A stretch of DNA of 63,068 nucleotides, the filler included, from an uncultured bacterium (GTDB taxonomy: Bacteria; CAYJOG01), in the NCBI GenBank assembly GCA_964371695.1. It is 36 parts of 36 records of this genome, joined end to end, with 100 filler letters (N's around TTAATTAATTAA, not from the genome) between each part and the next. Parts side by side here need not be neighbours in the genome. Positions count along the whole stretch, not along the records: positions 7,465 to 9,225 come from CAYJOG010000634.1; 35 more parts are not named here. One strand, 5' to 3'. A program made the translations under genes and the position numbers. Positions 7,465-42,668 of this stretch are shown here, piece after piece. The notes below the pieces were generated by a model. The model had not been told where the DNA came from. It worked only from the letters and a program-made list of their open reading frames with translations, and made no database searches. The stretch's first letter is position 1; the number at the start of each line of letters is the position of its first letter.

Positions 7465-7534
7465 GCCCTCTCCCTCAGGGAGAGGGCAAAGACTGGCCCC
7501 GCCCTTTGTCTACGTCAAATGTGAATTTGCTCTA
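7465..7534 (-). repeat. Repeat family C copy
   Basis: GCCCTCTCCCTCAGGGAGAGGGC...GTCTACGTCAAATGTGAATTTGCTCTA. Confidence 0.8.
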
Positions 7535-7667
7535 ATAAACCCCTCACCCCAACCCTCTCCCTCAAGGGGAGAGGGGGGTCGAGGGCGTTCTGTTGTTTGG
7601 TCAACGGGCACGACAAGGCGGAAAACTGTGCATAAACTTACGCAAAATGAACTAACAGCGGGCTTGA

Positions 7668-8522
7668 TTACTGCAACAGTTGCAACGCCACCTGGGGAGC
7701 AGAGTTGGCCTGGGCCAGTGTGGCCAGTGTGGACTGGGTGAGGATTTGCAGCTTGGTGAAGTTGGCCAGTTCGCTGGCATAGTGGGTGTCGGCAATCTGC
7801 GACCGGGCCGAAGACTGGTTGATGTTCTCCGCAGTGAGATCGCTCACGATGTGGCTGAGGCGGTTGCGAAGCGATCCCAGGCCAGATCGGATGCCCGCCA
7901 GGGTGCTCAGGTCCACATCGGCCTGACTCAGGCCGCTCTGGGCCTGCAACGTGAGGTTGGCCAGGGGGTTGGGGGGCGGGGGCTGGGCCAGAAAGCCGTT
8001 GATGGCCGTCTGCATCTGGGGAATCACCACCGACAGGCGGAACACCGAGCCGCCGTCGGCCCCAATCTGCGCCACCGCGCCCACAGTGCTGTCCAGGTCG
8101 CCAAAAAGAATGAGCTTGGTGTTGAAGGTGGTGGACTGGGCGATGCGCCCCAGCTCGGTGCGCAGGGTGTCGGCCTCCAGAATCAGCATGGCCTGTTCCT
8201 CGCCGGTGAGCGTGGCCCCGTTGGCAGCCCGCACCAGCAGGTCGCGGATGCGCAGCAGGTCCATGGTCATTTCTTCCATGGCCGCGTCGGCGGTGTCCAG
8301 CAGGTTCATGGTGTCCTGGGCGTTCGCGAGCGCCACGGTGTTGCCGTTGATGCGCGAGGTCATCACCGTGTTGATGCCCATGTCGCTGGGGCTGTCGGCG
8401 GCTTGGTTCAGCTTGTAACCCGTGGTGGTATGGCGCAGTGAATCAGCGGTTGCATTCGCAGTCATCCGCAGGCTGTTTAATGCCCTGAGCGCCGCCACGT
8501 TGGTTGTTACGCTGATACTCAA
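7668..8522 (-). CDS. fliC: Flagellin (short type, minimal variable region)
   Basis: N-terminal SVTTNVAAL...GYKLNQAADSP, STTFNTK, QIGAD; C-terminal RSGLGSLRNRL...SARSQIADTHYASE...LAQANSAPQVALQLL; TTG start after GGGAGG. Confidence 0.93.
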   Translation of the reverse strand: MSISVTTNVAALRALNSLRMTANATADSLRHTTTGYKLNQAADSPSDMGINTVMTSRINGNTVALANAQDTMNLLDTADAAMEEMTMDLLRIRDLLVRAANGATLTGEEQAMLILEADTLRTELGRIAQSTTFNTKLILFGDLDSTVGAVAQIGADGGSVFRLSVVIPQMQTAINGFLAQPPPPNPLANLTLQAQSGLSQADVDLSTLAGIRSGLGSLRNRLSHIVSDLTAENINQSSARSQIADTHYASELANFTKLQILTQSTLATLAQANSAPQVALQLLQ

Positions 8523-8650
8523 AAGGCCATCCTCCCTGAATCGCCCGTTGAAAAGAGATGTGTGTGCTAGTTCTTGACCCCCTAGCTTAATGCCAAATCC
8601 GGTGGATAACAACCTGAATATGGTGCGAGGGATAAAAAACCACCCCTGCC

Positions 8651-8819
8651 TATGTTTTCTGGTTCGCCGGTTTCATCCGTGAAACCTTGCGAACAACGCC
8701 GCACGCCCCAGGCCCACCCAGTTAAACGGGGCTGTTTGTCACAGCTTTTGCCTTTAAAGAAAATTTTCGGGTGAGCGCCACCCACCTTGGGGCGGCGGCG
8801 GAAACGGCCATCCATGGCC
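8651..8819 (-). ncRNA. Candidate structured RNA or ssDNA element, family A, copy 1 (upstream of flagellin, sense orientation)
   Basis: Plus-strand hairpin GTTCGC-C-GGTTTCA-TCCG-TGAAACC-TT-GCGAAC (8662-8694); long stem 8697-8712 pairing with 8786-8800; hairpin GGCCA-TCCA-TGGCC (8806-8819); homologous copies at 17445 and 26465. Confidence 0.6.
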
Positions 8820-9003
8820 TCTTTCCCGTGGATGCCGCCAAAATGGTCAGGAACAGATCCTTTTTCAATGTTCGTTTTGACAAAAAACACCACCAGATAA
8901 CCCAGAGCCACCAAATAAGCCCGGAGGGAAGTTAAATTATACAAAACAGTCTGGTTTTTAGCCGATTTTTCAGCTAAAGTGGCCGATATTCCAAGGAATA
9001 GGG

Positions 9004-9225
9004 ATGTTCCTGAAAATAAAAAGCTGGATTGGTGTGGTGGGATTGACCCTGCTGATGGGGCTGGGGATGACGCTGCCCCTGGGCTGCGGAGGCGGCGGCA
9101 AGTCGGCCCGGCCGCTGGTCTCGCAAAACACCACCACCCATCCTGCCCCCGTGGCTGCGCCTGAGACACATGAAACAACCAAATTCACCTGGAGCCAAAC
9201 CGCGGGCGCTTATTTGGTGAGCGGC
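9004..9225 (+). CDS. Lipoprotein N-terminus (3' truncated)
   Basis: Hydrophobic signal peptide with lipobox-like PLGC followed by GGGG. Confidence 0.6.
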
Positions 9226-16724: not shown

Positions 16725-17123
16725 GTGCTGGACCGCCCCATCTTTGAGACGTATTACAAAGACGACGAACTGGGCGACCCCATGATCAACCCGGATCACA
16801 TCCGCGCACTGGGTCTCGCCAGCGGCGGTGAAATGAAAACCATCGAAAAACTGGCCCGGCACATCAACAAGCTGCTGGTGAAATACATGGCCAAACGGGG
16901 TCTGCAACTGGTGGATTTCAAGCTGGAGTTTGGCCGCCCCCACGACAAGGGCGAGAACGAAGGCGGCCTGATTCTGGCCGACGAAATCAGCCCCGACACC
17001 TGTCGCCTGTGGGATGCCGCTACACACGAAAAACTCGACAAGGACCGGTTCCGTTTTGACCTGGGGAAGGTGGAGGAAGGTTATCAGCAGGTCTACCAGC
17101 GGGTCACAGGAGAAAAACCATGA
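16725..17123 (+). CDS. purC: SAICAR synthase, C-terminal part
   Basis: [43 protein letters not shown]. Confidence 0.96.
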
Positions 17124-17389
17124 AAACCTATCACCTGCAGGTGTTGGTGCGCCGCCGGGCGAACATTCTCGATCCCCAGGGTCAGGCCCTGGAAAAAAGC
17201 CTCTCGCGCCTGGGTTTCAAGGGTGTGGAAGACGTGCGGGTGGACAAGGAAATCCGCCTGAGCGTGTCGGCCCAAAACCTCGCCGAGGCCAAATCCCAGG
17301 CCAAGAAAATGTGCGACCGCCTGTTTGTCAATCCGGTGCTGGAAGACGCCATCATCACGCCGATTGACCATCTTGCAGGGGTTTTGTAG
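17120..17389 (+). CDS. purS: FGAM synthase subunit PurS
   Basis: [33 protein letters not shown] overlap with purC. Confidence 0.95.
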
Positions 17390-17444
17390 CAAACATCCAG
17401 GTGCATCCCCCCGTTTCCTTGACATGAAAAACTCGGCTCATTTC

Positions 17445-17608
17445 ATATTCTGGTTCGCCGGTTTCATCCGTGAAACCTTACGAACAACACCGCACGGTTC
17501 AGACCACCCCGGTCGGTGGCGTGGTTGGGCTGTGGCTTTGTTGCCAGTTAAGTTCAGGTCAGCGCCTCCCCGTTCTGAACCGGCGGCGGAACGGGCCATC
17601 CATGGCCC
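17445..17608 (-). ncRNA. Candidate structured element, family A, copy 2 (between purS and purQ)
   Basis: Hairpin 17453-17485; stem CACCGC-A-CG-GTTCAGA (17488-17503) pairing with TCTGAAC-CG-GCGGCG (17574-17588); GGGCCA-TCCA-TGGCCC (17593-17608). Confidence 0.6.
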
Positions 17609-17655
17609 TTGGCTTCCTGATTCTTCCATCATCCTGATAGTCGGGGGTTCTTGAA

Positions 17656-18372
17656 ATGATCGCCACCAGAACACCATCCATTTCTAAAAAAAACCTCCGT
17701 TTCACCGTGGTGCGTTTTCCGGGCAGCAACTGCGATTTTGACTGCGCCTGGCTGGTGGAGCACCGCCTGAATCAGCCTCTGGCCTGGGCTTGGCACGAAG
17801 ATAAAAAACTGCCCCCCACCGATGTGTTGCTGGTGCCCGGTGGGTTCAGTTATGGCGACTATCTGCGGGCCGGAGCCATCGCCGCCACCAGCCCGGTGTG
17901 TGAGGCCATCGTGCGACACGCCGAAAAAGGTGGTTTGGTGATGGGCATCTGCAACGGGTTTCAAATACTCACCGAAATCGGCCTGCTGCCCGGCGCGTTG
18001 CAGCAGAACAGCGGCCTTCGGTTCGCCTGCCAATGGGTGCATCTGCGGGTGGAAAACAACACCGGGCCGTTTTTGTCGCACCTGCCCGTGGGCACGGTGC
18101 TGCGTTTGCCCATCGCCCATGCCGAGGGCAACTACACGCCCCCCGCCAAGGGTCCGCGCCCCGTGGCCGCCCTGCTTTATTGCGATGAAAACGGCGTGGT
18201 TTCCGAGGCGTCCAATCCCAACGGCAGCGTGGGCAACATCGCGGGCCTCCTCAACCAGCAGGGGAATGTGCTGGGACTGATGCCCCACCCCGAACGGGCC
18301 GCCGACCCCCAACTGGGCGGCACCGATGGCCTCGCGCTTTTCAGTGCGCTGGGTTTGCCGCCACGGGCCTGA
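17656..18372 (+). CDS. purQ: FGAM synthase glutaminase subunit PurQ
   Basis: FPGSNCD, PGGFSYGDYLRAGAIA, GICNGFQIL, AHAEG, LMPHPER. Confidence 0.96.
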   Translation: MIATRTPSISKKNLRFTVVRFPGSNCDFDCAWLVEHRLNQPLAWAWHEDKKLPPTDVLLVPGGFSYGDYLRAGAIAATSPVCEAIVRHAEKGGLVMGICNGFQILTEIGLLPGALQQNSGLRFACQWVHLRVENNTGPFLSHLPVGTVLRLPIAHAEGNYTPPAKGPRPVAALLYCDENGVVSEASNPNGSVGNIAGLLNQQGNVLGLMPHPERAADPQLGGTDGLALFSALGLPPRA

Positions 18373-18544
18373 TTTGCCCGGCCCAGGGATTAAAAGTTAA
18401 AAGGTAAGCCCCCTCTCCCCTTTAATGGGGAGAGGGTTGGGGTGNNNNNNNNNNNNNNNNNNNNNNNNNNNNNNNNNNNNNNNNNNNNTTAATTAATTAA
18501 NNNNNNNNNNNNNNNNNNNNNNNNNNNNNNNNNNNNNNNNNNNN

Positions 18545-25754: not shown

Positions 25755-26406
25755 GCTCAGCAAGTGGGCAACACCCTGGACTCATCCGGGGATCTGGGCC
25801 TCGAGTCATCTGGATTCCCACCATGTGTTGCTGAGCGGTGTATCCACCACCCTTTTTCTGCCCAAGCCCCTTGAGGATGAAAAAAGTCGGCAGAAAGGCC
25901 AGAGCCGCGTGATGTGGCTGGTGGCGTTGCCCCCCGCACACCCATTGCTCACACAACCCTTTCGGCGGCTTGCCCAATCTGAAAACAACGACCTTTTTCC
26001 GATTGAGCCGTTTGACCCGGAGGCTTCCTCCAACCTGTCCATTGTGGAGAGTCCGCCTGTCCAGAGCTGGAACCAGCCCAATCCCCTGAATCAATCCCAC
26101 TGGCAACACCTGTGGACAGGTGTCAAACCCCAGGGGGCTTCTTTTTTCCTGGCCGAATGCGAGGCCCCCCGCGCCACGGTGCAAGTTCCTTCAGGAGGCG
26201 GAACGACGGGCAACGAAACCTGTGGCCTGAACAACAATCAGGCCGCCCCTGCCGGAAGCGCCTCCCTGCTTTACAATCCCCTTTCCGACACGCTCCAGGA
26301 TCCCTGCCCCGATGGCCAACTCCCGCCTGAACTGCCCTATTTTTTTCAGGACCAGCAAAGCTTTGTTTCCCACCCTTTCTTAAATGACGCCAGAACCACT
26401 TATTAG
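25755..26406 (+). CDS. Hypothetical protein, C-terminal part
   Basis: Frame open from the contig start to TAG at 26406; no recognised motif. Confidence 0.45.
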
Positions 26407-26464
26407 AACCTATTTACTCTTAAAGCTGCATTCCCGTTATGAACACAAAGAACCCCGCCCGGCT

Positions 26465-26630
26465 TATGTTTTCTGGTTCGCCGGTTTCATCCGTGAAACC
26501 TTGCAAACAACGCCGCACGTCCCAGCCCAACCCTGAAAGATTCTTGTTTTCCAAACTGCCCTTTTCCAGAGAACGCTCTCTGCCGCTCGCCCCCCATGCT
26601 GGGTCGGCGGCGGGAACGGCCGCTATCGCC
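26465..26630 (-). ncRNA. Candidate structured element, family A, copy 3
   Basis: Hairpin 26476-26508; stem CGCCGC-A-CG-TCCCAGC (26511-26526) pairing with GCTGGGT-CG-GCGGCG (26598-26612); degenerate terminal hairpin. Confidence 0.6.
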
Positions 26631-26699
26631 TTTGCTCGGCCAGATGCCCCAATGGGCATCTGGAGTGACTCCTCGCAAACTCCTGGCCTCTGGATGTGG

Positions 26700-27442
26700 A
26701 TGTCGCGAGAAATTCTGTTTACCGCTTTTATCAACCGGGTCCTTGTCTGTGGTGTGACCCTGTTGCTGTGCCTCGCCGCGCCAGCCGTTCAGGCCAAGCT
26801 GGGGGTGCGGGTTTCCAGCGGCCTGGGAGACAAAAATACCGGCTTCGCCCATGTGCCGGTGCAGGTGGACCTCACCCTCACGCCGCAAACCGAAATCACT
26901 GGCCCCCTCACGGTGGAAATCCTCACCCCCCATGGCCGCCCCCTTGTCAGCCGCACCGCCCTGCTCACGCCGCCCATGGAAACCTCTCTGTGGCTGATTT
27001 TGCCGGAGCTTTTGCGCGAGAGTCAGGACAACACCTATCGCCTGCGGGTGAGTGACGAAAAAACAATTCACTTCGAAGACAAGTTCACACCCAACGTGAC
27101 TTCTTCGGGCGGCGGCTGGTATCGCGGCAACCAGGGGCTGAACGAGGGGGTGCTCATCGCCAGTCCGGCGGTGTCGGCTTTTCCTTCGTTGCTGATGAAG
27201 GAACTTTTTTCCGCCCCCATGGCCATCAAGACCCAACTCTCCATCTCTCCGCCCGCCTGGCCCCACCCCGACAGAATGGGGGCGCTCAGCACCCGCCAGT
27301 TGCCCGACCTGCCAGAGATTCTGGATCAATTGGCCGCCGTGGTGCTGGTGCCCTCCACCCAGGAACCCCTCACGCCCCAGCAGGGTCAGGCGTTGCGGCT
27401 TTTTGTGCTGAACGGCGGCCAGTTCGGGGTTCTTCAGCACAT
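26700..27442 (+). CDS. Secreted hypothetical protein (3' truncated)
   Basis: Signal peptide ending AVQA; 'LDQLAAVVL...LTPQQGQALRLFVLNGG' resembles glutamine-amidotransferase-like/DUF4350 domains. Confidence 0.6.
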
Positions 27443-34463: not shown

Positions 34464-34647
34464 NNNNNNNNNNNNNNNNNNNNNNNNNNNNNNNNNNNNN
34501 NNNNNNNTTAATTAATTAANNNNNNNNNNNNNNNNNNNNNNNNNNNNNNNNNNNNNNNNNNNNACTTTATAAACCCAACGCCATCGGGGGCAAAGCCCCC
34601 TCGGCGTGGCGAAAACCTTAACATTTTCAATGTTTCGGCTTTCGGAT

Positions 34648-34721
34648 GCGGCCATCCATGGCCGCAAGAGCCTGTTTGAATTACACCATGTTTCACATGG
34701 CGCAATTTATAAACAGGCTCT
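34648..34721. repeat. Repeat family B, copy 2
   Basis: GCGGCCATCCATGGCCGC-A-AGAGCCTGTTT...CCATGT-TTC-ACATGG...AAACAGGCTCT. Confidence 0.85.
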
Positions 34722-41498: not shown

Positions 41499-41743
41499 GC
41501 CCCGGTGTGGACAACGCGGTGAAGGGTTATCTGGAAGCCAAGAAAAACAAACAGACCCTGGCGGCCATGATGCTGTTTGGCAACTCGCCGCAGATTCTCA
41601 CCAAATACACCTACAACGACACCCACGCCACGGGCTTCAACGAAAAAGGCGAACAGGCCGTGAGCGTGCCCTATACCGAGGCATTTGTGGTGCGCCGAGC
41701 GTTTGACGAGAAGTTCCAGGCATGGCGGCACAACACCGGCTGA
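41499..41743 (+). CDS. DMSO-reductase family type II enzyme, Fe-S beta subunit C-terminus (NarH/NxrB/SerB/EbdB-like)
   Basis: PGVDNAVKGY...LFG...GFNEKG...VP..E...RHNTG resembles beta-subunit C-termini; directly precedes gamma and chaperone genes. Confidence 0.7.
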
Positions 41744-41768
41744 GCCGACCAAAAGGAGGAGACCAGAC

Positions 41769-42668
41769 ATGAAACACAAATTAATTTCCACTCTTTCCCT
41801 TCTGGCGGCGATGGGCGCGGCGGGCGCGGCGCAGGCCGAAGGCATCACGGCCAAATATCTGGCCGTGGAAGACGGCTTCTTCGCCGTTCCCCACCCGCTG
41901 TTCGGCCCCTGGGCGCAGTTGCCCGCAGTGCCGGTGACACTCATGCCCCAGGGCATCACCACGCCCAGCAAAAGCACCCCCGGCCCCACCACTGTCGAGG
42001 CCCGCGCGGCCCACAACGGCAAGTGGCTGGCGGTTGAGGTGAGCTGGGCCGACGCCAGCAGCAACAACAAGTCCGCCACCTCGCAGTTTTCTGATGGTGT
42101 GGCCATGAGCATTCCGCTCAAAGACCCCGCCGCCACCAGCCCCTTCATGGGCAGCAAGGGTGCGGAAGTGTCCGTGATTTACTGGAAGGCCCTGTGGCAG
42201 CGCGACATGGTGAACGGTTATCAGGAAGTCACCGACCTTTACCCCAACGCCTTCACCGAGGGTTATCACAACTTCTATCCGCCCAAGGAAACCATCCATG
42301 GCCTGGCCACCAGCAAAGAGGTGTGGGCCAACCCCGGCAGCCGCGAGGCCAACCCCGCCCTGGTGCTGAACAGCCCCATGACGCAGCCCGACCGCACCAC
42401 GCCGGTGGAACAACTCATCGCCGAAGGTTTCAGCACCCTCACCACCCAGCGCCAGCAAGACGCCAAAGGCTGGGGTGTGTACAAAGACGGCAAGTGGCAC
42501 GTGGTGTTCACACTGCCGCTGAAAAGCGGCGACACGGCTGACCCGGCCCTTGTTCCCGGCGGGGTCAGCGCCATCAACTTTGCGGTGTGGGACGGCGGCG
42601 TGGAAGACCGTGGCGCCCGCAAGTCCTACAGCATGTTCACCCCGCTCACGCTGGAGAAATCGCCATGA
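41769..42668 (+). CDS. Periplasmic heme b gamma subunit (EbdC/DdhC/SerC-type DOMON domain)
   Basis: Signal peptide AQA; ARAAHNGKWLAVEVSWAD, FSDGVA, PFMGS...IYWKA, GKWHVVF, NFAVWDG...RGARKS. Confidence 0.88.
   Translation: MKHKLISTLSLLAAMGAAGAAQAEGITAKYLAVEDGFFAVPHPLFGPWAQLPAVPVTLMPQGITTPSKSTPGPTTVEARAAHNGKWLAVEVSWADASSNNKSATSQFSDGVAMSIPLKDPAATSPFMGSKGAEVSVIYWKALWQRDMVNGYQEVTDLYPNAFTEGYHNFYPPKETIHGLATSKEVWANPGSREANPALVLNSPMTQPDRTTPVEQLIAEGFSTLTTQRQQDAKGWGVYKDGKWHVVFTLPLKSGDTADPALVPGGVSAINFAVWDGGVEDRGARKSYSMFTPLTLEKSP

Follow-up and report, generated by a model that had tools for sequence, protein, structure and literature searches.

The described repeats closest to the element reported here are REPINs and the bcr1 repeat. 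REPINs are high-copy, extragenic and non-coding. Their ends are highly conserved, the spacer less so apart from its set length, and compensatory changes are frequent; spacer length and the ability to pair both matter, the hairpin is predicted in single-stranded DNA or mRNA, and movement is brought about in trans by a single-copy enzyme (PMC3116915). The same paper regards the replicating element, not the host, as the unit of selection, and what is kept as what the mobilising enzyme needs. The bcr1 repeat of the Bacillus cereus group is a dispersed, transcribed repeat of ~155 bp with flanking direct repeats; related strains differ in where their genomes carry it, and its multi-helix fold is preserved by compensatory changes (PMC3184786). 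Miniature inverted-repeat transposable elements (MITEs) such as Correia and ERIC are small, non-coding, multi-copy and present or absent between relatives, and they can sit inside operons and carry promoters (PMC3184786; PMC3575422). Here we describe a structured element of ~170 nt found in three copies in a stretch of 63,068 bases from an uncultured bacterium (assembly GCA_964371695.1); the whole stretch is called the window below. We lean towards seeing in these copies a family restricted to one lineage, made up of small repeats that are non-coding and non-autonomous, that are mobile or were so recently, and that are REPIN- or bcr1-like and of asymmetric build.

Like REPINs, the element is high-copy, extragenic and non-coding, and its spacer appears to matter by length and by ability to pair. 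REPINs are, however, symmetric, two inverted copies of one REP forming a single hairpin of ~100 nt, whereas the 33-nt 5' hairpin of our element has no inverted twin at the 3' side, its end hairpins are different palindromes, only imperfect arms of 15-16 nt pair across, and the 70-nt loop is not palindromic. It resembles bcr1 in size, in dispersal and in a distribution that differs between relatives; it has no sequence relation to bcr1, no secure counterpart of the 5-bp direct repeats that flank it, and a middle that is unrelated between copies, whereas bcr1 copies are alike throughout. With MITEs it shares size, copy state and presence or absence between relatives, but terminal inverted repeats and target-site duplications, by which MITEs are defined, could not be demonstrated. 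PATEs, which derive from IS200/IS605, have asymmetric ends, each with a subterminal imperfect hairpin, and no terminal inverted repeats; they move as single-stranded DNA via a Y1 HUH transposase that binds both hairpins. The element likewise has asymmetric ends with a hairpin at each, but no TnpA, TnpB or omega-RNA-like part was found in the window, and its end hairpins share their apical 8 nt only; a long-range stem joining both ends is, to our knowledge, not a feature of the PATE family. attC sites are comparable in their single-strand fold, bulged base and conserved outer pairing around a variable centre. They differ in that no R''/R' core motifs were seen in the element by eye, and neither a cassette array nor an integrase among the window's genes was found. 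Finally, the bridge RNAs of IS110 elements are ~170 nt long, with a 5' stem-loop followed by a larger structured region of variable loop sequence, and copies of one insertion sequence share one bridge RNA. Our element has no adjacent recombinase, the complementarity of its loops to their flanks does not exceed background, and its loops differ between copies.

Three copies of one scaffold

The window comprises 36 contigs of 1524-1767 nt, ordered by length and joined by spacers of N44 + TTAATTAATTAA + N44; one contig has an internal 10-N gap. One copy lies on each of three separate contigs (7465-9225, 16725-18444 and 25755-27442), as the initial annotation had stated. The cores are at 8651-8819 (copy 1), 17445-17608 (copy 2) and 26465-26630 (copy 3), all on the + strand and all internal to their contigs, none at a contig end. 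A 32-nt block running from TTCTGG through the inner hairpin occurs three times with 0 mismatches, and none of 100 shuffles contained any match to it. Motif scans at up to 3 mismatches returned exactly three copies, and a covariance model built from the three copies and run without filters (model R1) scored them at 196.5, 181.1 and 175.7 bits, the next best score in the window being 11 bits. The shared architecture is therefore as first described, with three exact 32-mers and model scores of 176-197 bits, and the covariance model that had been suggested as a check recovers only these three. Neither the motif scans, nor a short-word BLAST of the three elements, nor model R1 gave a fourth copy in the window, which corresponds to a density of three of 36 contigs, or about one copy per 20 kb.

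That the copies resemble one another by chance or through an assembly error can practically be dismissed. This idea, for which we found nothing to say, is refuted by the shuffles (0 of 100 match the 32-mer), by the internal placement of every copy and by independent material, since the scaffold is present in contigs of all four metagenome runs examined (six listed; two studies) and in a separate NCBI/ENA record reached via the sequence P0122 described below.

Each unit measures ~230 nt in total, of which the core makes up ~170 nt. The core coordinates first given hold, but looser conservation extends ~60 nt upstream and ~30 nt downstream. Ahead of the leader, the three copies and the loose-end consensus strings of further copies have an A-run, a C-rich stretch and a T/A-rich hexamer, TAnnnT; 3' of the 3' hairpin follows a loosely conserved block with GGATG and GCCAAA. 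The apex CATCCRTG is common to both end hairpins, whose stems differ; in copy 1 the apical CATCCATG of the 3' hairpin resembles CATCCGTG at the 5' hairpin apex. A stretch of 281 nt that includes copy 2 has five CATCC on its plus strand, whereas the window as a whole, both strands counted, has 2.1 per kb.

In copy 1 (+ strand, as are all features of the three copies), the upstream block at 8592-8656 consists of a GCCAAA/GGTGGAT segment followed by an A-run, a C-rich stretch and TATGTT (three-copy alignment), and the same A-run, C-run and T/A-rich pattern is seen in the loose-end consensus of other copies. The TTCTGG leader and 5' hairpin, with 6 + 7 pairs, a bulged C, a TT bulge and the loop TCCG, lie at 8657-8694 and were placed by identity in the three copies. 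The 5' strand of the long-range stem (CGCCGC, a bulged A, CG and the variable CCCCAGG) is at 8697-8712 (inverted repeat I1, pairing analysis). The 73-nt loop at 8713-8785 has conserved C-rich edges and an unrelated middle (alignment). The 3' strand of the stem (CTTGGGG, then CGGCGGCG) follows at 8786-8800 (motif scan, pairing analysis), and the GAAAC linker with the 3' hairpin GGCCA-TCCA-TGGCC at 8801-8819 (sequence, pairing analysis). The downstream block CCGTGGATGCCGCCAAAA is at 8826-8843 (inverted repeat I5); its first 9 nt are complementary to 8809-8817 and offer an alternative to the 3' hairpin of this copy, and the P0122 copy has a similar block, as do other copies judging by their loose-end consensus. 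A 10-nt direct repeat occurs at 8598 and again at 8824 with one mismatch.

Copy 2 has its upstream block at 17391-17447, beginning directly after the purS stop codon and containing two CATCC motifs, TTGACA and an A-run (alignment). Leader and 5' hairpin are at 17448-17485, with a private A at 17480 (32-nt block match), the 5' strand of the long-range stem at 17488-17503 with GTTCAGA as its inner 7 nt (pairing analysis, inverted repeats), the 70-nt loop at 17504-17573 (alignment), the 3' strand (TCTGAAC, then CGGCGGCG) at 17574-17588 (motif scan, pairing), and the GAAC linker with the hairpin GGGCCA-TCCA-TGGCCC at 17589-17608 (sequence, pairing analysis). The corresponding parts of copy 3 are the upstream block at 26432-26470 (alignment), the leader and 5' hairpin with one C-A mismatch at 26471-26508 (32-nt block match, pairing), the 5' strand at 26511-26526 with inner TCCCAGC (pairing analysis), the 71-nt loop at 26527-26597 (alignment), the 3' strand (GCTGGGT, then CGGCGGCG) at 26598-26612 (motif scan, pairing), and the GGAAC linker with a degenerate 3' hairpin at 26613-26630 (sequence, pairing). 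Just 3' of copy 3, at 26640-26663, there is in addition a perfect 10-bp hairpin (CCAGATGCCC / GGGCATCTGG, 4-nt loop) that overlaps the likely start of the next open reading frame (ORF).

Fold and covariation

The long-range stem starts 2 bases after the 5' hairpin and ends 5 bases before the 3' hairpin. In the named structure, 94.9% of the 99 sequence-by-pair cells pair; sliding the partners by 1-3 columns lowers this figure to 34-48%. Changes on both sides were observed in five pairs, four of which belong to the inner part of the long-range stem, and this number was reached by 8 of 500 shuffles. Four of the 15 pairs of the long-range stem covary, as compared with none of the 13 pairs of the 5' hairpin, 11 of which never vary. 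The covarying inner stem of 7 bp proposed at the outset is borne out as far as changes on both sides are concerned, with two corrections: in copy 3 the first pair is a T-T mismatch, leaving six of seven positions paired, and the inner stems of all three copies share CAG at positions 4-6.

The RNA folding z-scores for the plus and minus strands were -3.8 and -2.8 (copy 1), -3.0 and -4.5 (copy 2) and -1.2 and -1.3 (copy 3); copy 3, as a whole, thus folds weakly. With DNA parameters, each strand of copy 1 adopted the same architecture at a z-score of -5.3, far lower than shuffled controls. Selection for a single-stranded fold, as initially proposed, is supported by the covarying inner stem and by the folding of both strands of copy 1 below shuffled controls. 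The preference for the minus strand that had been put forward is not. The G-T in the 3' hairpin of copy 3 pairs only on the plus strand, so that the wobble substitutions number three that pair only on minus and two only on plus, and not three and one; with the copy inferred from P0122 the count is four versus two, which is not significant, and the z-scores are split between strands. Neither folding energy nor wobble count decides between the strands. The best fold of copy 1 includes a tentative extra helix, formed by the GAAAC linker and the T-run that precedes the leader, which closes a three-way junction. A reading of the sequence suggests that this helix is possible in copy 3 as well; in copy 2 the register is shifted.

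Complementarity kept despite sequence change would also be expected if the long-range stem were a pair of DNA inverted repeats around an invertible segment of ~70 bp acted on by a global invertase, as recombination between the repeats would keep them complementary with no single-stranded fold being involved. Imperfect inverted arms of 16 nt do flank the variable segment in each copy. We hold this to be very improbable. Seventy base pairs is very short for site-specific inversion, the two flanking hairpins and the bulged A are left unexplained, none of the 51 ORFs scanned in the window encodes a recombinase, and no strand-change joint was reported by the metagenome contigs, although these did not cover the loop.

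Copy number and copies beyond the window

The copy-2 contig is present in four sediment-metagenome runs of one study, and a small part of it in two groundwater runs of a second. Contigs from four of these six runs (X1 and X2, together with the groundwater runs X5 and X6) were aligned to 17150-17850 at a likeness of at least 80%, giving 50, 40, 95 and 63 aligned contigs for X1, X2, X5 and X6 (the order used throughout). Summed depth on the 5' scaffold bin 17462-17485 was 541, 254, 9443 and 2954, compared with 4.7, 2.9, 7.9 and 11.2 on purS. The scaffold thus has ~90 to 1200 times the depth of the flanking genes in all four runs and both studies, summed contig depth not being equivalent to copy number. 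The 3' scaffold bin shows a smaller pile-up than the 5' one (97, 68, 928 and 595). Depth is near zero across the loop, and the absence of any in bin 17534-17557 in the four runs is a hole in contig cover rather than a finding. The pile-up is confined to the scaffold and spares the loop; the family has many copies, and the loop is not the same from one copy to the next. For the two sediment runs, the ratio of ~90-115 is of the order of magnitude expected from three copies in 61 kb. Some contigs match both scaffolds with the loop left out of the alignment, and in one the loop has diverged at an unchanged length (68 nt). At 17480, the position of the private A of copy 2, a G was found in 11, 10, 14 and 9 distinct contigs of other copies.

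An open frame that runs by chance through copy 2 (P0121, plus frame) was used as a protein-search query. It had one true relative among 1.84 billion representatives, P0122, and the same one in 5.8 billion clusters; two further matches, P0123 and P0124, were dropped as low-complexity false matches, and a search with the minus-frame ORF of copy 1 gave no candidate copies. P0122 is a 118-residue ORF from an NCBI/ENA record. It is not a protein in its own right but a translation through a copy of the non-coding repeat, i.e. a spurious gene call. It has the scaffold peptides WFAGFIRETLRTTPH and NRRRGRPSMA in one frame, 87 nt apart by count, which corresponds to a 72-nt loop, with proline-rich (hence C-rich) edges and an unrelated middle. 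Three positions of its inner stem are fixed by the amino acids; two of them can pair and one is a C-A mismatch. Read through its translated sequence, P0122 represents a fourth full copy of the element.

The purS-purQ site

Copy 2 fills the 266-nt gap between purS (17120-17389, + strand; Pfam PurS, E 7e-24) and purQ (17656-18372, + strand; Pfam GATase_5), within a purC-purS-purQ operon. In the groundwater runs, both contigs that bridge purS and purQ skip 324 nt and have 57 or 33 other letters between the flanks. Compared with the window, these flanks have 16 differences in 212 positions and 15 in 164 (X5), and 23 in 212 and 15 in 165 (X6); the relative from which they come is ~92% identical in purS and purQ, and there the two genes follow each other directly and the element is absent. 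The 33 letters of the X6 contig can be read as a purS stop overlapping a GTG start of purQ. At 80 purQ loci of other genomes, purS lies upstream on the same strand in 45, with an extrapolated median gap of ~-30 nt and a gap above 200 nt in 5 of the 45; model R1 found no match in these 80 loci (415,611 bases). The simplest reading is that the element was inserted between purS and purQ in the lineage of the window, and this is the one site at which presence and absence could be compared.

Such an insertion into an operon may alter expression. The N-terminus of PurQ is longer than in the groundwater relative (17656-17690). Among the additional codons is CCATCCAT, the motif at the apex of the 3' hairpin, so the start of purQ may owe its present form to the insertion. 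The C-terminal tail of PurS also differs from that of this relative.

Proposed movement of the element

The suggestion of a non-autonomous mobile element, which the initial annotation had offered as one of two, is strengthened by the many contigs piled up on the scaffold and by the empty purS-purQ site. We infer from the data above that the element moves, that it does so as single-stranded DNA, and what kind of enzyme is involved. When one strand becomes unpaired, the long-range stem would close and bring the two end hairpins side by side; the folded single strand would then be recognised by an enzyme encoded elsewhere in the genome and the element moved in trans through this folded intermediate. 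It is the geometry of the long-range stem, together with the apex shared by the end hairpins, that leads us to favour such an intermediate. By analogy, the most likely partner would be a Y1/HUH-type transposase, as for REPINs and IS200/IS605 elements; we would not call this tentative assignment probable in itself. In such a scheme the end hairpins and the outer stem would have to keep their sequence, the inner stem would need only to pair and the loop only to keep its length, and moving elements would stay identical at the scaffold as their middles drift apart. The high copy number, an inner stem that varies yet pairs and a free middle of fixed length fit the logic of REPINs, as does a scaffold that is near-invariant even between hosts ~8% different in housekeeping genes. 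The conserved ends, the set-length and less conserved spacer and the compensatory changes typical of REPINs are all found in the element; in place of two inverted REP copies forming a hairpin, only imperfect arms of 9-16 nt pair, and a RAYT (Y1 transposase) domain was found in none of the 51 window ORFs.

Several observations weigh against mobility. No clear terminal inverted repeats were found when inverted 10-mers with at most one mismatch were sought at corresponding flank positions, and the CATCC/GGATG motif that recurs in the flanks is too weak to be called one. There is no clean target-site duplication: the 10-nt repeat of copy 1 overlaps a block conserved in the family, copy 2 has a single weak direct repeat and copy 3 lacks one altogether. 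All loops seen were different from one another, so that no recent copying event is documented. The relative with the empty site is ~8% diverged and differs at the gene ends too, which leaves a deletion in the relative as the alternative to an insertion; the exact borders of the element are not readable from that site, and its ends are undefined. Transposase, HUH, recombinase, reverse transcriptase and Cas domains were found in 0 of the 51 ORFs, i.e. in ~61 kb of genome. The search for linked nuclease, reverse transcriptase, recombinase or HUH genes that had been recommended was thus empty in these ORFs. Finally, the three copies point in the same direction as the next downstream gene, which also fits a function at the RNA level.

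If the element is indeed mobile, it would be a clean natural case of selection on the fold of a mobile element and not on its sequence. Its architecture, two unlike end hairpins clamped by a covarying stem, would be new for this kind of repeat, and it would predict a partner enzyme not yet known, in a deep-branching uncultured lineage. Such repeats break assemblies of the host organism, this genome being in pieces of 1.5-1.8 kb, and create spurious ORFs in public protein collections, such as P0122.

The variable loop

The loops measure 73, 70 and 71 nt in copies 1-3, the lengths given previously, 72 nt in the P0122 copy and 68 nt in one metagenome contig. Whole-loop alignments are 3.1-5.0 z units above shuffles and both C-rich edges are conserved, and the middle of ~47 nt is near random (z 1.0-2.2). 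The loops had been described as C-rich at the edges and unrelated in the middle. The edges are in fact homologous and only the middle is near random, so that 'unrelated' does not hold for the loop as a whole.

An unchanging scaffold, a closing stem that covaries and a cassette of near-constant length are what one would expect of a small RNA gene in which a protein-binding scaffold presents a locus-specific cassette of ~45 nt, and a possible -10-like hexamer lies upstream. This architecture is all that speaks for a guide RNA, and we consider the idea improbable. The guide-bearing RNA of the initial annotation found no support in the target searches that it had called for. The three elements gave, against the rest of the window, short chance-level BLAST matches and nothing above the E 0.01 level of significance, and against 50,697 phage and 72,556 plasmid records, only matches of 27-46 nt at E 0.07-0.8. 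Compared with their own flanks, the loops showed no excess over cross and background controls, the longest exact matches being 5-9 nt against a background mean of 7.6-7.7 and a 95th percentile of 9-10. No nuclease, Cas, TnpB, IscB or recombinase gene was found among the 51 ORFs. Homologous edges and faintly similar middles fit the drift of one ancestral loop better than cassettes acquired one by one. Equally improbable, in our view, is the genome-wide form of this idea, a dispersed library on the order of a hundred small RNA genes serving a new type of guide or decoy system; about a hundred guide genes per genome would be without precedent. Were it true, the interest would be much higher, in a lineage that has no cultured or well-sampled relatives.

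Genomic context and transcription

The three copies are intergenic, next to flagellin, purS/purQ and secreted-protein genes. Copy 1 is followed by an ORF from 9004 that resembles a lipoprotein gene, having a signal peptide, a lipobox and a G+C content at third codon positions (GC3) of 0.73; copy 2 is followed by purQ at 17656, and copy 3 by a signal-peptide ORF from ~26650. There is no conserved reading frame across the element. A conserved small ORF was rejected, as open frames occur on both strands and in different frames per copy, and the frames have a flat GC3 of 0.49-0.55 compared with 0.75-0.82 in real genes.

This context would also fit the strongest competing reading, an RNA acting in cis. 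The element would then be a leader or intergenic module that is transcribed ahead of many genes not related to one another, with its scaffold selected at each locus. It could take the form of a mobile promoter, of an mRNA processing or stabilisation site, or of a platform to which a single global RNA-binding protein binds, and it could still have spread by mobility. All three copies are upstream of the next gene and co-oriented with it. Copy 2 is inside the purC-purS-purQ operon and its + strand must therefore be transcribed. In the copies, as in several of the loose-end consensus strings, a TAnnnT hexamer precedes the leader by 0-6 nt, the C-rich loop edges could mimic an anti-Shine-Dalgarno sequence, and pairing between the downstream block and the 3' hairpin would allow an alternative fold. 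Putative mobile promoters have been defined as stretches of 50 nt or more that are 80% or more identical and lie upstream of non-homologous genes (PMC3575422). Copies 1 and 3 share 61 nt at 96.7% upstream of unrelated genes, and the pairs with copy 2 share 49 nt at 94-96%, one base below the 50-nt bar.

Other observations make us regard a cis-acting RNA as possible and, on balance, unlikely. The agreement of three orientations is weak, with a chance of 1 in 8. In no copy did strict scans place a sigma-70 promoter or an intrinsic terminator at a conserved position, and no sigma-70-type promoter was found at a 5' end; the loop of copy 1 has one promoter-like and one terminator-like site, and copies 2 and 3 have none. 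If the T-run is paired with the GAAAC linker, it cannot also be the -10 box of a transcript that starts downstream. By duplex energy, a loop pairs no better with the region downstream of it than with the corresponding regions of the other copies, and cis pairing of the loop with its own downstream mRNA was rejected. The near-identity over 32-61 nt is unlike that of riboswitch or leader paralogues conserved independently of each other.

Catalogued families and collections

Over the whole window, the 4227 models of Rfam release 15 gave 0 matches at the gathering threshold. In E-value mode, the best scores for the three copies were 16.0, 15.8 and 11.7 bits against thresholds of 55, 48 and 72, with E-values of 0.9-1.7. 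The expectation that the element belongs to no known Rfam family and is no attC site was therefore upheld, attC core motifs, looked for by eye, being absent as well. ARAGORN found no tRNA or tmRNA gene in the window. An exact 22-mer of the core had no match in 185,579 representative genomes, and a 26-mer pattern none in viral contigs. An exact 19-mer was found at 13 loci of JGI metagenome contigs, none of which continues into the element, and these were discarded as chance matches. Literature keyword searches, by which sequence motifs cannot be sought, did not return the element family. The element is thus new in the sense of being absent from Rfam 15 and from the collections scanned.

Host and minor observations

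The gene content of the window is that of ordinary bacterial housekeeping, motility and signalling, apart from ORFs that cross spacers and are artefacts. For 17 of the 41 larger ORFs scanned, no Pfam family was found at E 1e-5, which is consistent with a poorly sampled lineage. PurQ and phosphoglycerate kinase (PGK) are at most 53-55% identical to named relatives (for PurQ, among the matches listed), and these belong to mixed phyla. The host is accordingly an uncultured, deep-branching bacterium, and its habitat is sediment and groundwater; near-identical PGK sequences exist in public records, and one of them, on contigs of up to 41 kb, agrees with that of the window in 399 of 400 residues.

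The 10-mer CCATCCATGG occurs four times in the window, above the chance expected for a 10-mer in ~60 kb. One occurrence is a solitary hairpin at 34647-34664 (CCATCCATGG within GCGGCC...GGCCGC), the core of which is the same as that of the 3' hairpin of the element. It lies 85 nt from the contig start, preceded by GGATG and a separate GC-rich hairpin (34580-34612), and scores 6.9 bits with model R1; it could be a solo remnant or a related module. Another occurrence, at 42292-42304, follows GGAAAC and is located inside an ORF (41685-42668) with an ethylbenzene-dehydrogenase-like domain.

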